In this document: positions 58,644 through 64,000 of the stretch, piece after piece
Layout: each line of letters starts with the position of its first letter
Numbering within the stretch: the first letter of the stretch is position 1
DNA from: Bacteroidales bacterium
Lineage (GTDB): Bacteria > Bacteroidota > Bacteroidia > Bacteroidales > UBA3663
Assembly (NCBI GenBank): GCA_045628985.1
Contig: JAZQQH010000042.1
Location: forward strand, 14,796-78,795
Length of the DNA: 64,000 nt
Reading direction: 5' to 3'
Notes under the pieces: model-generated
The model's input: the letters and a program-made list of their open reading frames with translations, nothing else
Database searches by the model: none
What the model was told of the DNA's origin: nothing
Position numbers and translations under genes: made by a program

Positions 58644-58660
58644 GTGTAGTAAAAAAAATA

Positions 58661-58691
58661 ATAGCACTTCACACTTGTGGAGTGCTATTTT
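58661..58691 (+). terminator. Rho-independent terminator at the core/accessory boundary
   Basis: ATAGCACTTCAC-actt-GTGGAGTGCTAT followed by TTT. Confidence 0.6.
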
Positions 58692-58705: not shown

Positions 58706-58785
58706 ACATTTTTCTGCACTTATTTTGGCGCAAAACCACAAAAATCTGCAGATATTTCCAAGAAAATTTACATTTTTCTGCACTT
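58706..58785. repeat. 16-bp direct repeat ACATTTTTCTGCACTT (58706-58721 and 58770-58785)
   Basis: Two exact copies 64 bp apart, in the gap between the core genes and the AT-rich operon. Confidence 0.8.
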
Positions 58786-58862: not shown

Positions 58863-59810
58863 TCACGTACTGGTTACCAGCGCGTCAATTATCTTTTTAG
58901 CATTCGTAGTGGCATAGTCTCGATGAGCGTTACGGAGTGTTTTGTGCGTATAATTCATCAAAGAATCAAACTCTGGCCAAGTCAGGTCGAAGACTGCTGT
59001 CATAGCACGCCCTAGGTAAGCTGCGTCGGATGTCCTCTTCACGGTTATACCATTATTGTCAGCCCCAATTATGCCATGGCCGATTGCCGTTGCAAGCCAC
59101 AGAGCTATGGTTTTCAATTTCTCTGCGCTGAATCTCCTATGGGCAAGACTCTTTTCAACGAACCCGAGAATCTGGCTTTCCGTTAGTTTAGCGTGCGGGA
59201 TATAATTGTAGCTGAAAATAAAGATATCAAGAATAGGAGTCTCTTCTTTTCGATAGAACGTCAAGCCTTCTATTCTCTGACTTCTTAAAAATGCAGCCAG
59301 CTGCCGGCTATAGACGACTATTGTCTGTGGCTTATGCTTAGTAAGCATTTCCCGAAATGCCCCTAATCCATCCCTGAACAATAGAGAATGTTCCTCCGGC
59401 GAGGGAGTGTCTGCATCTGACTGGAAATGCTGGAAGAAGTTGTAGAACCCCAGATGATCCCATAATTCCTGCCGCCTTTCTATAGAAACAAATCCTTTCT
59501 CTTGCAATAAGAAACTAGTGACCATCGAAAACGAAGGAGATTTCGCTTCGTTCTCGATGTATGAGTCAAGCTCTATGCTATTGCAGTTGCTCAGACGATA
59601 ATAGCTTTCAAACTCAGTACCTTTGTATTTCTCATATTCCGGGCACTGGCAATCCATCTGCTTCGCACCCTGCATGCTGCAACATTTCGACTTATGCTCA
59701 CAGTTCTGTTCGCAAAGCAGATGAACTCCTACGATCATCGTCCTTACACCCTGCCAGCCTTCTTCATACTGGTTACCGATGCGAGGACGAAAAAAGATCT
59801 TACTCTCCAT
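58863..59810 (-). CDS. Cys-rich hypothetical protein, last gene of the accessory operon (possible immunity or partner of the nuclease)
   Basis: 315 aa. 6 Cys within 24 residues (LLCEQNCEHKSKCCSMQGAKQMDCQC). Its ATG is embedded in the last codons of the nuclease gene (11-nt overlap, tATGGAGAGTAA). No family recognised. Confidence 0.6.
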   Translation of the reverse strand: MESKIFFRPRIGNQYEEGWQGVRTMIVGVHLLCEQNCEHKSKCCSMQGAKQMDCQCPEYEKYKGTEFESYYRLSNCNSIELDSYIENEAKSPSFSMVTSFLLQEKGFVSIERRQELWDHLGFYNFFQHFQSDADTPSPEEHSLLFRDGLGAFREMLTKHKPQTIVVYSRQLAAFLRSQRIEGLTFYRKEETPILDIFIFSYNYIPHAKLTESQILGFVEKSLAHRRFSAEKLKTIALWLATAIGHGIIGADNNGITVKRTSDAAYLGRAMTAVFDLTWPEFDSLMNYTHKTLRNAHRDYATTNAKKIIDALVTST

Positions 59811-60318
59811 ATATTTGTTTCAGCTCACTACGGCTGAAGTTCTTAAACCGTGCTTGCCAGTATCGACTCTTTTCTCCGTCAAATTTCTGACGATCAATCA
59901 CCGACTCTCGCTGGGGATGTAAGATTGCATTGTTTCCATCGCCCATGTGCTCCTGCCATGTCAATTCTGCAAAAGGAGAGTCCTGTTGCTGCCCAATATG
60001 GTGCAACTCATACGGATCGCCATTCTTGTCACGGGGTGGCCATCCTTCTCCAATCAGATCGGCATTATTATAGTCATACCATTTCTTCCAGTCAGCGAAC
60101 TTTTCCTTCAGCCAGTCAAGACGGCAATTGAACGCGCTCCAGTCGATATCCTTGCGTATCAATGCAGGACGATCATCGACTCTAGCTTCCACAAGGCCAG
60201 CATTCATATAGATGCGAGCCTCAGCCATAGTGCGTATGCATCTGACAACAGCCATTGACCACCCTGTGTTTTGGATGATTTCTTGTTGTTGAACAGCTGT
60301 AAGTTCTGTTTCAAACAT
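59800..60318 (-). CDS. Stand-alone HNH/EndoVII-superfamily nuclease, LHH-type toxin-like domain
   Basis: 172 aa. ...NGDPYELHHIGQQQDSPFAELTWQEHMGDGNNAILH... gives the HH...N...H beta-beta-alpha-metal pattern. The N-terminal ...TGWSMAVVRCIRTMAEARIYMNAGLVEARVDDRPALIRKDIDW... resembles the linker that precedes LHH domains in polymorphic toxins (from memory). Confidence 0.7.
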   Translation of the reverse strand: MFETELTAVQQQEIIQNTGWSMAVVRCIRTMAEARIYMNAGLVEARVDDRPALIRKDIDWSAFNCRLDWLKEKFADWKKWYDYNNADLIGEGWPPRDKNGDPYELHHIGQQQDSPFAELTWQEHMGDGNNAILHPQRESVIDRQKFDGEKSRYWQARFKNFSRSELKQIYGE

Positions 60319-60330
60319 ATTCGTTCTTTT

Positions 60331-60501
60331 TTATAATCCAAACAGGAGACCCAGCCATCCGCCTTTCTTTGGCAGACACAATGCGCCACACTTAGGGCAA
60401 CGCATTGGCATAGTACCAGCCGTTGCGTTGTCCTCAATATCAAGACCTTCAAATACGTTACCACAGGCTTCGCACTTGAACTTTGTCGTTCCTCTCAGCA
60501 T
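60331..60501 (-). CDS. 56-aa zinc-ribbon mini-protein with hydrophobic C-terminal tail (not in the ORF track)
   Basis: Hand translation: MLRGTTKFKCEACGNVFEGLDIEDNATAGTMPMRCPKCGALCLPKKGGWLGLLFGL*. Two CxxC pairs. Lies 3 nt after the upstream stop and 12 nt before the nuclease ATG. Confidence 0.55.
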   Translation of the reverse strand: MLRGTTKFKCEACGNVFEGLDIEDNATAGTMPMRCPKCGALCLPKKGGWLGLLFGL

Positions 60502-60504
60502 GAA

Positions 60505-60633
60505 TTACTTCTTTTTGTAATCCTTGTAAATCTTAAGTGCGCCGGCAACGACTGTACCTATTGCTGCAAAAACTGTTGCCACTTCTTTTTCACTAACATC
60601 CTTTAGTTGTCCGAACTTAGTAAACTCTTTCAT
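60505..60633 (-). CDS. 42-aa Lys-rich single-helix peptide (not in the ORF track)
   Basis: Hand translation: MKEFTKFGQLKDVSEKEVATVFAAIGTVVAGALKIYKDYKKK*. Central small-residue hydrophobic helix with a KKK tail. Confidence 0.45.
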   Translation of the reverse strand: MKEFTKFGQLKDVSEKEVATVFAAIGTVVAGALKIYKDYKKK

Positions 60634-60751: not shown

Positions 60752-61240
60752 TCAAAAGTCTAATAGAGGTAAATCAGGATTATTATAAACCTCAAAAAAC
60801 TGTTCCAAATCATCCAGTGGGGATTTAGTTACAATATTGCTTATGCCTTGCAAAGAAGCAAGAATAAGTTCTCTATCTCCACTTTCTATGGCCTTATCCA
60901 TAAGCTCATAATGCTTCTGTAATGCTCCATTTCTTTCGCCAAAGGTACTTTCTAAAAACTGCTGACAAACCTTATATTTAGCAATAGTGTTCGCCATTTG
61001 AACATTACTCCACGCATTAATCTGCTCTGTTCTGGCTTTAAAAGCCTGACATTGAGTATATAGATTCGCGATATTCTGTGCAGAATCTGCTAAAGATAGC
61101 ATCTGACCAGAGATATCCTGCACTTGTTCTAATAGTCCCTCACATCTATCCATGCCATTGTTAAACTTCTCTGACAAGGAAGTAGGTGCATTTTTTTCGT
61201 AAGGAACGACTATCCCATTTTCTTTATTTCTATTCTCCAT
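60752..61240 (-). CDS. All-helical hypothetical protein
   Basis: 162 aa, predicted helical by composition. Its start is 2 nt after the stop of the 546-aa gene. No family recognised. Confidence 0.65.
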   Translation of the reverse strand: MENRNKENGIVVPYEKNAPTSLSEKFNNGMDRCEGLLEQVQDISGQMLSLADSAQNIANLYTQCQAFKARTEQINAWSNVQMANTIAKYKVCQQFLESTFGERNGALQKHYELMDKAIESGDRELILASLQGISNIVTKSPLDDLEQFFEVYNNPDLPLLDF

Positions 61241-61242
61241 TT

Positions 61243-62883
61243 TTAAATTTTTGAATAACTAATTTCTTTGTATGCTTTTATTGCTCTACCGAGATCTCGA
61301 ACTTCAAGAGGAGTAAGTATCTGATTACAACTATAAACCTTAGTCATTAATTGATTATAGATATCCCTGAATCCTTCATTAGCTTTCACTATACTCTGTG
61401 CTACTTCAATGACTCTATAAAGCTGAGCACGTCCTTCTGTGTAGCCATCAACAATGATTTGCATATCTTTTACTATATTAGCTTGATTTGCTTGTATGCG
61501 GTCAACTTTTGCTGCATGGTCTGCTGCCGCTGACATTGCTATTGTCGCAACTCCAATGAGTGCTGCACCTGTAGCTACTTTTTTATTAGAATAGATAAAC
61601 TGACGAACATCCTTGTTATTTACTATTGTTCGGGCCACATTATCATACTTCTTTATCGTATCAGATACATTGTTTGTTTTATAACCTTGGAAGGTAACAG
61701 AAAACAAAGAAAGGTCAATATCTTCTAAACTTACCATATCAGCCTCTTTCTCCAAATTACCACCTCCTGAACCATGACGTATAACATTAAGCAATTCGAC
61801 ACCAAGATATACATTTTGGAATGCATAGGTTCTAAGCTGGTCTAGTGCATCACTTAACTCATCACAAATCATCTCAAGTTCTTCGTATTCCTCATGCGCT
61901 GCATTACGCAGTTTCTTCATATCTTCGTACTGTTCAGATAATTTACCTGTATCTGTGTATAGTCCAAGAAATCCAGAAACATCTCTGTTCTTTATCCTGT
62001 CCAATTCATTAAGAATAGATTCGATTTTATTATCGTTCAGAAGATTCTTACAGTTTGCTATGCGTGAATTTTGTTTTCTTTGAAGAAATCCCGTTGCAGC
62101 GTATCTTCTAAATTGTTCAGGATTAAATTCTCCTTGAGGCACAAGTGCCTTATATACGTTATCATTGGCTTCCTTCCTTAATGAAATCTTGCAAAACAAT
62201 TCTAATTTTTTATCTGCCAATTCCTTTGCCCTTTCCATTCGTTCAATAGGAGCAGCCTGTCTCAACAGTCGTAGTAAATTTGCTATATTTAGAAATAATT
62301 CTACGACCTCTTTATAATTTTCCTTCGTTATCGAATTTCCTGGTATAGGGACTGAAATTTCTTTCTGCACAAATAGGGTATATAATTCACCTAAAGTTGA
62401 ATTGTATAAATAAGAAAGATGCTGTTTTAACTCATTTGTCTGCTTTTCTATTTCTCCCAACTCTTTATTCAATACTTTTTCTTTTTCTTTAAAATCTCTG
62501 TACTTTTCTCCATTGCGCAATAGCCATATTTTCTTCCTTATATAAAAATATAGAGAAATCAGTAAAATCATTATTACTGTACTTCCTATTACAGAAATAA
62601 ACCATCCCATAGCTGAGACTTCTCCATCCCATCCCTCGAATGGAATTGCAATAATGGATGATATGAATAACCAAGTAAGGCAGCCACATCCATATTCAGT
62701 GCAACCAGAATTTTCAACGTAATCAGGAATCTCTGTCCTTGAATTTTCTATTTCTGATTTAATTATTTCTTGTCTTTCCTCTAATACAGTCTGTTGTTTT
62801 TGGAGTTTATCGTACAAAATCAAAGATTGCTCACATTTGTCAAAGCGAGAATAGAAATCAAATGTTTTGACTTGATTATTCAT
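61243..62883 (-). CDS. Coiled-coil membrane protein (TM hairpin plus long helical domain plus third hydrophobic helix)
   Basis: 546 aa. Heptad-rich N-terminus. Cys cluster CTEYGCGC before TM1 (LTWLFISSIIAIPF). TM2 (FISVIGSTVIMILLISLYFYI). About 340 aa rich in K/E/L/N. An Ala/Gly-rich helix (ATGAALIGVATIAMSAAA). No NTPase or other enzymatic motif seen. Confidence 0.7.
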   Translation of the reverse strand: MNNQVKTFDFYSRFDKCEQSLILYDKLQKQQTVLEERQEIIKSEIENSRTEIPDYVENSGCTEYGCGCLTWLFISSIIAIPFEGWDGEVSAMGWFISVIGSTVIMILLISLYFYIRKKIWLLRNGEKYRDFKEKEKVLNKELGEIEKQTNELKQHLSYLYNSTLGELYTLFVQKEISVPIPGNSITKENYKEVVELFLNIANLLRLLRQAAPIERMERAKELADKKLELFCKISLRKEANDNVYKALVPQGEFNPEQFRRYAATGFLQRKQNSRIANCKNLLNDNKIESILNELDRIKNRDVSGFLGLYTDTGKLSEQYEDMKKLRNAAHEEYEELEMICDELSDALDQLRTYAFQNVYLGVELLNVIRHGSGGGNLEKEADMVSLEDIDLSLFSVTFQGYKTNNVSDTIKKYDNVARTIVNNKDVRQFIYSNKKVATGAALIGVATIAMSAAADHAAKVDRIQANQANIVKDMQIIVDGYTEGRAQLYRVIEVAQSIVKANEGFRDIYNQLMTKVYSCNQILTPLEVRDLGRAIKAYKEISYSKI

Positions 62884-62885
62884 AA

Positions 62886-63050
62886 TTATATAAAATTTTG
62901 TCTGTTTGTTTCATGTATGAATTCGAATGTTACGCCATGTTTATGGCACCCTTTGTTGCGACCATCTGGATGATGGGAACAGGTCGCACTGACAAGTTGT
63001 CTGACATTTACGAAGCGGTGTCCACAGTATTCACAATAATAGTAAGTCAT
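62886..63050 (-). CDS. 54-aa Cys/His-rich zinc-ribbon-like mini-protein, first gene of the operon
   Basis: MTYYYCEYCGHRFVNVRQLVSATCSHHPDGRNKGCHKH.... ATG at 63050 is preferred over the track's GTG start at 63110. Its stop is 2 nt before the next ATG. Confidence 0.55.
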   Translation of the reverse strand: MTYYYCEYCGHRFVNVRQLVSATCSHHPDGRNKGCHKHGVTFEFIHETNRQNFI

Positions 63051-63323
63051 AGGTATGTAGCGTTGTTTTATTAAAAAAGGCGCAGCTTCTATATCATCCG
63101 TCCTCGTCACTCAGGCATCGCCAAACGCCCCAACAAAAAGAACAAGAAGATACTTCTACCGCGCCTGCCTATGTATGAGGTAACCTCGCTAATGAGGCGC
63201 ACATATACAAAGACAGGGAAAAAGCATCAGCTGTCTTGATCTTTGTTCTCTGATTTGGCGATTTTGAGTGACGATCAATAGACAATATGCCATTCCATTA
63301 TGTCTGGAATCGAAATTCCGCGA

Positions 63324-63433: not shown

Positions 63434-64000
63434 TTACAACTCCCAATCCCTTACCTCATTCGTAAGTCCTCCAAGAATTGTCATTTCATCTTCATAAAGT
63501 TCCTCTCCATAGATGACTGCAAAGACATATACAGAGTGGGTATTCGCTTTGTAGCAGACCTTCATCAGGAACTCGTTTTCCATATCTGTCATTCCTGAAT
63601 AGATCCCCGTATCGCCATAACTGGTTACTGTTTCTATTTGCTCTTCTGGTCCGACGGTATATCCGGCATCAGGATATACAGCAGCGGCCCAACTGCCCAG
63701 TTCCCAGTAGCAGACCGTTATATTGTCCATTCCCCAGATGGCTCCCTCGATGATGTCAATATCTGGGCATTCAAGCTGCTGAAAGTGAGATGGTACGCGG
63801 AATCCATAGCCAGTTTTCACCCACGAAAAATTATCGACAGAATCGTCTGAAGACATGCGATCCTGCATAGCGGCAATCTCGTCTTCATCACCATATCCAT
63901 TCTTCACATTCTCGACATACAAACTCTGCGAGACACTCCACATAAAAAGTATAAGCACTACAAGAGCGACAAGTGAGACGATATCTTTGGTCGTAAGCTT
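63434..64000 (-). CDS. Membrane-anchored hypothetical protein (5' end outside the window)
   Basis: The frame stays open to the window edge (...KLTTKDIVSLVALVVLILFMW...), giving an N-terminal TM helix. The acidic, aromatic-rich ectodomain is not recognised. Confidence 0.6.
   Translation of the reverse strand, partial: KLTTKDIVSLVALVVLILFMWSVSQSLYVENVKNGYGDEDEIAAMQDRMSSDDSVDNFSWVKTGYGFRVPSHFQQLECPDIDIIEGAIWGMDNITVCYWELGSWAAAVYPDAGYTVGPEEQIETVTSYGDTGIYSGMTDMENEFLMKVCYKANTHSVYVFAVIYGEELYEDEMTILGGLTNEVRDWEL

Follow-up and report, generated by a model that had tools for sequence, protein, structure and literature searches.

A stand-alone LHH nuclease gene and an overlapping gene of uracil-DNA glycosylase type, probably a so far undescribed nuclease module of a phage-defence-type island in Bacteroidales

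This work concerns two overlapping genes in a stretch of 64,000 nucleotides (nt) from a Bacteroidales bacterium (assembly GCA_045628985.1, contig JAZQQH010000042.1, positions 14,796 to 78,795 of the forward strand), the whole of which is called the window below. Our data imply that the pair is probably a so far undescribed nuclease module of a phage-defence-type genomic island. As judged from its sequence, the first gene encodes a conserved, cytoplasmic and catalytically intact nuclease of the LHH type and not a polymorphic toxin tip. The product of the second gene, P315, is by sequence and predicted structure a divergent protein of the uracil-DNA glycosylase (UDG) superfamily, closest to family 4. 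A small zinc-ribbon gene directly upstream, Zn56, is a probable third member of the cassette. What we say about the function of this cassette we infer from sequence, predicted structure and gene neighbourhood. According to the listing of open reading frames (ORFs) of the window both ORFs are real and lie on the minus strand, arranged as follows (protein lengths in amino acids, aa):

59800..60318, minus strand: LHH nuclease gene, 172 aa (PF14411 match and conserved motifs)
59842..60069, minus strand: LHH core, residues 84-159, with H106, H107, H124, N129, N130 and H134
60070..60318, minus strand: family-specific N-terminal extension of the LHH protein, residues 1-83
59800..59810, minus strand: 11-nt overlap (ATGGAGAGTAA) of the LHH gene stop and the P315 gene start, likely translational coupling
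58863..59810, minus strand: P315, predicted 315-aa divergent UDG-superfamily protein (family profile, AlphaFold2 and Foldseek, hhalign)
59136..59810, minus strand: UDG-like core of P315, approximately residues 1-225
59643..59714, minus strand: Cys-rich insertion of P315, residues 33-56, right behind UDG motif A (invariant alignment columns)
58866..59135, minus strand: C-terminal helical extension of P315, residues 226-315
60331..60501, minus strand: Zn56, 56-aa zinc-ribbon protein, 12 nt upstream of the LHH gene (zinc-ribbon Pfam matches)

On the coding strand the junction reads ATATGGAGAGTAA, and the ATG of the P315 gene (59810..59808) opens an 11-nt overlap that closes with the TAA of the LHH gene (59802..59800). 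The two ORFs, their overlap, the peptides and the cysteine pattern, all of which a first-pass annotation had read from the letters alone, are present in the sequence. The pair does not consist of chance ORFs, because the same two genes with the same overlap recur in other loci and because all parts of the cassette are under purifying selection, with ratios of nonsynonymous to synonymous substitution rates (dN/dS) of 0.02-0.2.

The Pfam LHH model (PF14411) matches residues 84-159 of the 172-aa protein over positions 1-75 of its 76 (E 2.9e-18, 66.2 bits against a gathering cutoff of 23.3), which confirms its earlier assignment to the LHH-type HNH/EndoVII nucleases. The two peptides quoted at that time, YELHHIGQQQDSPFAELTWQEHMGDGNNAILH and GWSMAVVRC...DIDW, are its residues 103-134 and 19-60, respectively. 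More than 355 database clusters are homologous to this nuclease, and its identity across Bacteroidales genera is 60-94%. When 40 homologues of 62-91% identity are aligned, the beta-beta-alpha-metal core (D101-PYELHHIGQ...G128-NN..LH134) is invariant throughout; L105-H106-H107, H124, N129/N130 and H134 are invariant or nearly so. Zhang et al. (2011; PMC3113570) ascribe roles in metal binding and catalysis to the HH dyad and two further histidines of the LHH domain. From locus to locus the catalytic half varies little, at about 97% identity and a dN/dS of about 0.02. Such invariance of the core across 40 sequences, together with the identity between loci, means that the nuclease is not polymorphic. 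The AlphaFold2 (AF2) model of the protein is one compact domain (predicted local distance difference test score, pLDDT, 92.7; predicted TM-score 0.87). A Foldseek search of this model against the PDB gave no significant match, with ColE7 at a probability of 0.10, so that the Pfam profile and the motifs are the basis of the HNH assignment.

The first-pass annotation had described the nuclease as a free-standing protein of the polymorphic-toxin type. The first half of this description holds: the protein has 172 aa and no other Pfam domain, and neither the window ORFs nor Pfam revealed a signal peptide, a trafficking domain or a secretion gene in or near its gene. The second half fails, for in addition to the constancy of the core and the lack of a delivery domain the best 120 relatives are all proteins of 155-294 aa with an LHH domain, none of them a larger LHH toxin. 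A phage origin of the gene was rejected as well, as no LHH homologue was found among 50,697 phage records.

The first 83 residues of the nuclease are also conserved (dN/dS of the N-terminal part 0.13-0.18). A hidden Markov model (HMM) of this region matches LHH proteins exclusively, among them a stand-alone one of 199 aa from E. coli (plasmid pTW10590_133, E 4.6e-12) and a 435-aa protein of Ruminococcus albus, which it matches in the C-terminal part (E 6.9e-10). The region had been taken for the linker that precedes LHH tips on large toxins. It does precede an LHH core at the C-terminus of that one 435-aa protein, but it never occurs without LHH and is modelled together with the core as a single compact domain. 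The N-terminal 83 residues are an integral extension of this LHH subfamily, which can end a larger protein, and not a separable adaptor; an adaptor shared with other island proteins was ruled out by the HMM, which matches LHH proteins alone.

P315 itself matches nothing in Pfam, NCBIfam, PADLOC or PHROGs, and the search of Pfam, NCBIfam and PADLOC for an immunity family yielded no SUKH or Imm match (the PADLOC version used here, 2.0, is older than the description of the antiviral glycosylases Brig1 and Brig2). A word-indexed search found 29 close clusters only. The loci fetched for the nuclease held distant relatives of 24-28% identity, which have in common FFxPxIG, a G-x-S-x-Y-C motif, four cysteines and WxHxxFxN. 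Through profile searches the family grew to 43 proteins and, in an exhaustive search, to 1168 representative clusters. Many members have 215-260 aa, and therefore the conserved unit is the first ~225 residues. The family has no Pfam model, and its broad consensus ends in HPSS.

The link to UDGs emerged only once the family had been widened by exhaustive search; a PDB sequence search with the close-family profile (alignment A2) gave no match. Four partly independent routes then lead to the same superfamily, on which the identification of P315 is based. Firstly, the highest-probability Foldseek matches of the AF2 model of P315 (pLDDT 84) are 4zby, 1ui1, 1l9g, 4zbx and 1vk2, with probabilities of 0.57-0.87, and the top ranks by probability (0.72-0.87) go to family-4 UDGs. 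Secondly, the profile of 55 family sequences (alignment A3) matches the Sulfolobus tokodaii UDG 4zbx in the PDB (E 2.9e-5), aligned across the FxN strand and motif B (HPS). Thirdly, 16 of the 55 family members individually match Pfam UDG (PF03167), the best with E 4e-5. Finally, hhalign of the family profile against the S. tokodaii fragment gives a probability of 92% (E 5e-7). The strands of the AF2 model (24-28, 120-124, 163-166 and 183-201) follow the order of the UDG fold, i.e. b1-motif A, b2-Asn, b3, b4-motif B. The invariant N124 of P315 aligns with N82 of the S. tokodaii UDG, a residue that contacts the Watson-Crick face of the flipped base (PMC11078745). Motif A varies by clade (GASFYC, GSHFYC, GQYLYC, GDYHVC, and GVHLLC in the window), and motif B is HPS in most of the family and IPH in the window clade.

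The cysteine pattern of P315, C33-x3-C37, C43C44 and C54-x-C56, had been noticed earlier for its metal-binding look. C33, C37, C43 and C56 are invariant or nearly so across 55 divergent relatives (alignments A1 and A3), which makes metal binding plausible. These four cysteines belong to one insertion right behind motif A, not at the aligned positions of the Fe-S ligands of family 4, and the insertion is the lowest-confidence part of the AF2 model (pLDDT 61-69); a zinc or Fe-S site is a plausible reading of the sequence at this place. The C-terminal extension, residues 226-315, has on its own no PDB or Pfam match and is the fastest-evolving part of the cassette, with 41-77% identity where the nuclease core has 97% and a dN/dS of about 0.2 (0.11 in the UDG core). 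Taken whole, P315 has a five- to tenfold higher rate of evolution than the nuclease.

The relation between the two genes was followed through related loci (L-numbers), which had been fetched with nuclease or UDG-like protein seeds. The LHH-P315 pair with the identical 11-nt overlap occurs in L002/L003, L029, L030, L033 and L034 and in truncated form in L031 and L032; pair and overlap thus recur in at least six other contigs. The geometry of the overlap is kept even where P315 falls to 58-61% identity. Zn56 lies directly upstream of the LHH gene in five of six complete cases (the window, L002, L029, L030 and L033) and directly downstream of it in L004, L005, L009, L018 and L020, with a dN/dS of 0.05-0.14. 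In a sister clade (L006, L035-L042) the order is reversed: a UDG-like gene is followed by an LHH gene of 165-166 aa and this by a 114-173-aa protein with three BNR/Asp-box repeats. The UDG-like proteins of the sister clade have 255-257 aa, are 22-24% identical to P315 and are devoid of the C-terminal extension. A 370-aa relative stands 2 kb upstream of the LHH gene in L018, and among the look-ups seeded with UDG-like proteins LHH is immediately adjacent in 6 of 10. That the genes stay adjacent at 22-24% identity and with their order reversed is a good argument for a functional coupling of the UDG-like protein and the LHH nuclease, though not an obligatory one. The first-pass interpretation is supported in part; it missed both the UDG identity of the 315-aa protein and the neighbours of LHH that vary by clade, i.e. 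the BNR protein, the zinc ribbon and the UDG-like protein upstream.

The ~115-aa protein with three BNR/Asp-box repeats is the commonest immediate neighbour of stand-alone LHH, downstream of it in one clade and upstream in another (for example L006 6502-6849, L035 6300-6644 and L021 5619-5966). About ten tandem GC-rich units of 52 nt with the palindrome CGTCGCC...GGCGACG were seen between the LHH gene and rplU in L021 (6559-7076), and also in L022-L028.

The loci are co-directional arrays of small genes without known function and adjoin different housekeeping genes in each genome (rplU, pgk, argD, GH97; in the window the gene of an extracytoplasmic function, ECF, sigma factor). What can be recognised in these arrays is of the defence type. 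In L033 the Zn56-LHH-P315 genes, and in L038 the UDG-like-LHH-BNR genes, are directly preceded by those of LeoBC and LeoA of the Eleos system (E ~1e-87). Other genes of the arrays encode an IetA-like AAA ATPase, an AAA_15/AAA_21 ATPase, a WYL/WCX regulator, PDDEXK_9 proteins, a phospholipase-like protein, a DUF1232 protein and glycine-zipper membrane proteins. The setting of the cassette is a variable, low-GC array of the defence-island type, and the cassette stands at its distal end.

Pairs of LeoBC and LeoA genes within a few genes of stand-alone LHH were observed in several unrelated Bacteroidales genomes (L033 660-4813; L038 791-4935; L005, L008 and L015), and the LeoBC homologue has a faint TerB-like N-terminus. 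A plasmid of enterotoxigenic E. coli (ETEC; NZ_CP035852.1, 49932-58331; L043/L045) carries next to an IS66 element an apparent operon of two dynamin-family genes, a 290-aa hypothetical protein, a 1084-aa HerA/mad8-like ATPase, a 199-aa LHH protein and an overlapping SUKH_5 gene. This operon parallels the Eleos-LHH neighbourhoods in Bacteroidales.

From these data we tentatively favour a defence cassette of three cytoplasmic genes, Zn56, the LHH nuclease and the UDG-like P315, an account to which we give a little less than an even chance. The UDG-like protein would be the DNA- or base-sensing partner; by analogy with Brig1 and Brig2 it would flip an unusual or modified base out of invading DNA and recognise or excise it, and the LHH nuclease would be the effector that cleaves the DNA. 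That UDG folds can serve as anti-phage proteins has its precedent in Brig1 and Brig2. The overlapping genes would provide both proteins in a fixed stoichiometry, and because of this fixed ratio the UDG-like protein could restrain the nuclease; it would probably keep it inactive on self DNA, acting as a regulator and de facto antitoxin. The evidence is best matched by the earlier reservation that, instead of being an antitoxin or in addition to it, the 315-aa protein might be a sensor or regulator. In the literature we found no description of LHH in phage defence, of a pairing of UDG-like and HNH proteins or of the four-Cys UDG-like family. While the LHH domain and antiviral UDG-like glycosylases were both known before, their pairing is apparently new; the P315 family and Brig2 were compared by description only.

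Several observations weigh against this account. The Foldseek E-values of P315 are weak (0.06-0.4) and its TM-scores low (0.23-0.38), and P315 itself reaches no Pfam UDG score. Its motif A, GVHLLC, has no obvious catalytic acid, and its motif B is remodelled from HPS to IPH. In view of these altered motifs and the missing Pfam score P315 may bind rather than excise a base, or do neither. Among the LHH-seeded loci an adjacent UDG-like gene is present in just 2 of 19, the remaining ones having a BNR protein (upstream or downstream), Zn56 or neither, and there is an intermediate UDG-like clade without LHH. No PADLOC match and no recognised defence gene stands next to the cassette in the window itself. 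Finally, in the homologous LHH modules of E. coli and R. albus the position of P315 is taken by an immunity gene of the SUKH type.

This last point leads to the most serious alternative, a plain intracellular toxin-immunity pair similar to toxin-antitoxin systems, in which P315 would be a mere inhibitor of LHH built on an exapted UDG-like scaffold and would serve addiction or abortive infection without any base sensing. The translationally coupled P315 gene lies immediately downstream and overlaps, just where a genuine immunity gene, SUKH_5 or SMI1/KNR4, follows the stand-alone E. coli module and the 435-aa R. albus protein, and a catalytically intact nuclease implies that the cell needs protection. 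A dedicated inhibitor is hard to reconcile with the variety of partners: three unrelated proteins (P315, BNR and Zn56) follow a near-invariant nuclease in different clades, and in the sister clade the UDG-like gene is upstream and the BNR gene occupies the slot of the immunity gene. Motifs A and B of P315 are degenerate relative to the family consensus, which favours such a pair; the invariant pocket Asn and four cysteines and the dN/dS of 0.11 in the UDG core argue instead that a function of the UDG type was retained. The copies of P315 without LHH in L001 and L002 could be orphan immunity genes, but they are not isolated, being preceded by a conserved ORF with a transmembrane (TM) segment. 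On the whole we regard such a pair as possible and rather unlikely.

We consider it improbable that the genes are independent members of the island which merely travel together. P315 would then be a self-sufficient Brig-like glycosylase and LHH an effector or accessory of another system (e.g. an Eleos-like dynamin or an AAA ATPase), controlled by Zn56, BNR or its own N-terminal region. Brig1 and Brig2 do function as single genes, UDG-like genes occur without LHH (L001, L046-L050) and most LHH-seeded loci are without a UDG-like gene; furthermore, dynamin-type genes precede LHH repeatedly, as LeoBC/LeoA-type pairs in Bacteroidales and as genes of dynamin proteins in E. coli. Genes that only travel together would hardly keep an 11-nt overlap down to 58% identity of P315, or remain adjacent at 22-24% identity with the gene order reversed, or be immediate neighbours in 6 of the 10 UDG-seeded loci.

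An interbacterial polymorphic-toxin cassette, i.e. an orphan LHH tip and its immunity gene, retained so that they can recombine into a type VI or other secretion system or be delivered by it, would agree with the definition of the LHH domain as a tip of polymorphic toxins (Zhang et al., 2011; PMC3113570), and with the extended LHH at the end of the 435-aa R. albus protein, which is followed by SUKH; we find it very improbable, since the gene starts with an ATG of its own and its product has a conserved N-terminus, none of its best 120 relatives exceeds 294 aa, secretion and trafficking signals are missing nearby, the nuclease is conserved instead of polymorphic and its partner is no Imm or SUKH protein. 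Equally little credence is due to a dedicated DNA-repair pair that processes one particular lesion: a UDG fold with an endonuclease would suit it, but the genes are patchily distributed and stand in islands, among variable accessory genes and with flanks that differ per genome, the composition is a low-GC mosaic and P315 evolves fast.

The defence account may also be widened to the whole family. In L001 and L002 the gene that precedes the P315 paralogues is not LHH but a conserved single-TM ORF of 74-75 aa. Such an exchange of LHH for a small membrane protein has the appearance of effector swapping, which supports a reading as sensor and effector. It could be that the four-Cys UDG-like proteins (~1170 clusters) are base-flipping sensors of modified or foreign DNA that license interchangeable effectors, LHH or the small membrane protein, and represent a new modular anti-phage system, common in gut Bacteroidales and recurrently attached to Eleos. 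We offer this generalisation as a doubtful one.

The single-TM ORFs (L001 7814-8041, L002 4548-4772) are 34% identical and have the common motif LYxYGDxWF...LHR; L002 holds a TM-P315 and an LHH-P315 module, 2.3 kb apart. Fusion partners were considered as a clue to the function of the UDG-like family and proved uninformative, consisting solely of regions without known relatives and including no HNH domain. In some members (P0228, P0272 and P0286) the UDG-like domain follows a lipoprotein-type signal, an extracytoplasmic domain and a TM helix and is thus membrane-anchored, one member (P0300) has an N-terminal P-loop domain, and about 16 share a C-terminal region of ~200-450 aa which belongs to no known family.

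The remaining features of the island in the window are the following:

60505..60633, minus strand: 42-aa hydrophobic small ORF, 3 nt upstream of Zn56, of uncertain membership in the cassette (ORF listing)
60752..63110, minus strand: upstream array of co-directional genes for a 74-aa zinc-ribbon protein, a 546-aa TM/coiled-coil protein and a 162-aa protein (ORF listing)
58660..58689, no strand assigned: 13-bp stem-loop flanked by an A-run and a T-run, between convergent genes (terminator scan and sequence)

The 42-aa ORF has a weak homologue in L029, which does not adjoin Zn56 there. The genes of the upstream trio are 2 nt apart, have a low GC content (31-36%), are kept together in L029 at 50-83% identity and have no family match in Pfam, NCBIfam, PADLOC or PHROGs. 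The trio is probably a separate module that is a neighbour in the same island, and possibly a separate conflict module without known relatives. To judge from its sequence, the stem-loop is likely a bidirectional terminator that closes the array. The GC content is a mosaic: it is 31-36% at 60.4-63 kb, 44-47% over the LHH and P315 genes, and 47-59% in the chromosome on either side. TAnnTTTG, the -7 promoter motif of Bacteroidetes, is enriched, occurring 53 times in the window where 29 matches are expected, and no repeats of integron, CRISPR or rAID type and no structured RNA were found in the island of the window.

Just downstream of the P315 gene, in the intergenic stretch 58706..58785, there are two perfect 16-nt direct repeats (ACATTTTTCTGCACTT), 64 nt apart, with a palindrome (AAAAATCTGCAGATATTT) between them at the edge of the island; these repeats are absent from all 50 related loci compared. 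At 63434..63958 on the minus strand the window has a 174-aa ORF that is 90-91% identical to the C-terminal half of a 340-aa membrane protein with a zinc ribbon and DUF805 (L001, L034), so that the window copy seems to be N-terminally truncated or frameshifted. The DUF805-type gene is the common left edge of the variable island in three genomes, while the right flanks differ (ECF sigma, argD, GH97).

Among the known systems the closest to the nuclease are the LHH-SUKH toxin-immunity modules (PF14411; Zhang et al., 2011; PMC3113570). They have the same nuclease domain as the cassette, HH dyad and the two other metal-binding histidines included, and their second gene likewise lies immediately downstream and overlaps. 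The stand-alone LHH protein of E. coli pTW10590_133 (39% identity, N-terminal extension included) and the R. albus protein are true homologues. Contrastingly, the cassette has no delivery domain, no polymorphism and no SUKH or Imm protein, its downstream gene apparently encodes a 315-aa UDG-superfamily protein, and in sister clades the neighbour of LHH is a BNR-repeat or zinc-ribbon protein. The LHH domain, known as an interbacterial toxin tip, thus has a conserved, cytoplasmic, stand-alone lineage in defence-type islands of gut Bacteroidales, which is paralleled on an ETEC virulence plasmid beside dynamin genes. The Bacteroidales of human and animal guts are abundant and their phage-defence repertoire is poorly charted. 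Even if P315 were only an immunity protein, it would be the first one with a UDG fold for an HNH toxin.

Eleos (LeoA/LeoBC) is encoded directly upstream of the LHH cassette in L033, L038, L005 and L008, and dynamin genes likewise precede the LHH-SUKH pair of E. coli. It differs in that it is not present in the window and in that Eleos as described (PADLOC models) has no nuclease or UDG-like component. With the family-4 UDGs (4ZBX/4ZBY, 1UI1, 1L9G) P315 shares, as far as models and profiles can tell, the alpha/beta core, the pocket Asn of FxN and, in the family consensus, motif B HPS. P315 differs from these enzymes in motif A, which is GxSxYC-like (GVHLLC in the window) instead of GEAPG, in motif B IPH of the window clade, in cysteines clustered in an insertion after motif A, in the additional 90-aa C-terminal extension and in being island-borne and not housekeeping.

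Type IV (modification-dependent) restriction offers a similar logic, as SRA-HNH enzymes, e.g. TagI and ScoMcrA, consist of a base-flipping reader fused to an HNH nuclease. By this analogy the proposed cassette would likewise combine a reader of modified bases with non-specific HNH cleavage; there it is one polypeptide with an SRA/PUA-like reader, whereas here two coupled genes and a reader with a UDG fold are proposed.

The nearest relatives in concept are Brig1 and Brig2 (PMC11078745; bioRxiv 10.1101/2025.10.29.685425), which like P315 are divergent UDG-superfamily proteins without ordinary annotation and are encoded in A/T-rich regions resembling defence islands. The best structural match of Brig1 is the S. 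tokodaii family-4 UDG 4ZBY, as it is for P315, and Bacteroidota are not among its reported homologues (PMC11078745). Brig1 (GenBank OR880862) and Brig2 work on their own, whereas P315 is coupled to an HNH nuclease; P315 also differs in its four-Cys insertion and its C-terminal extension. Antiviral DNA glycosylases (the Brig1, Brig2 and Dag families) were recognised in 2024-2025 and are so far single-protein systems. A UDG-fold protein tied to an HNH nuclease would, if our account is true, be their two-component version, in which base recognition is joined to strand cleavage, and would assign a function to a large "dark" protein family that has no Pfam model.

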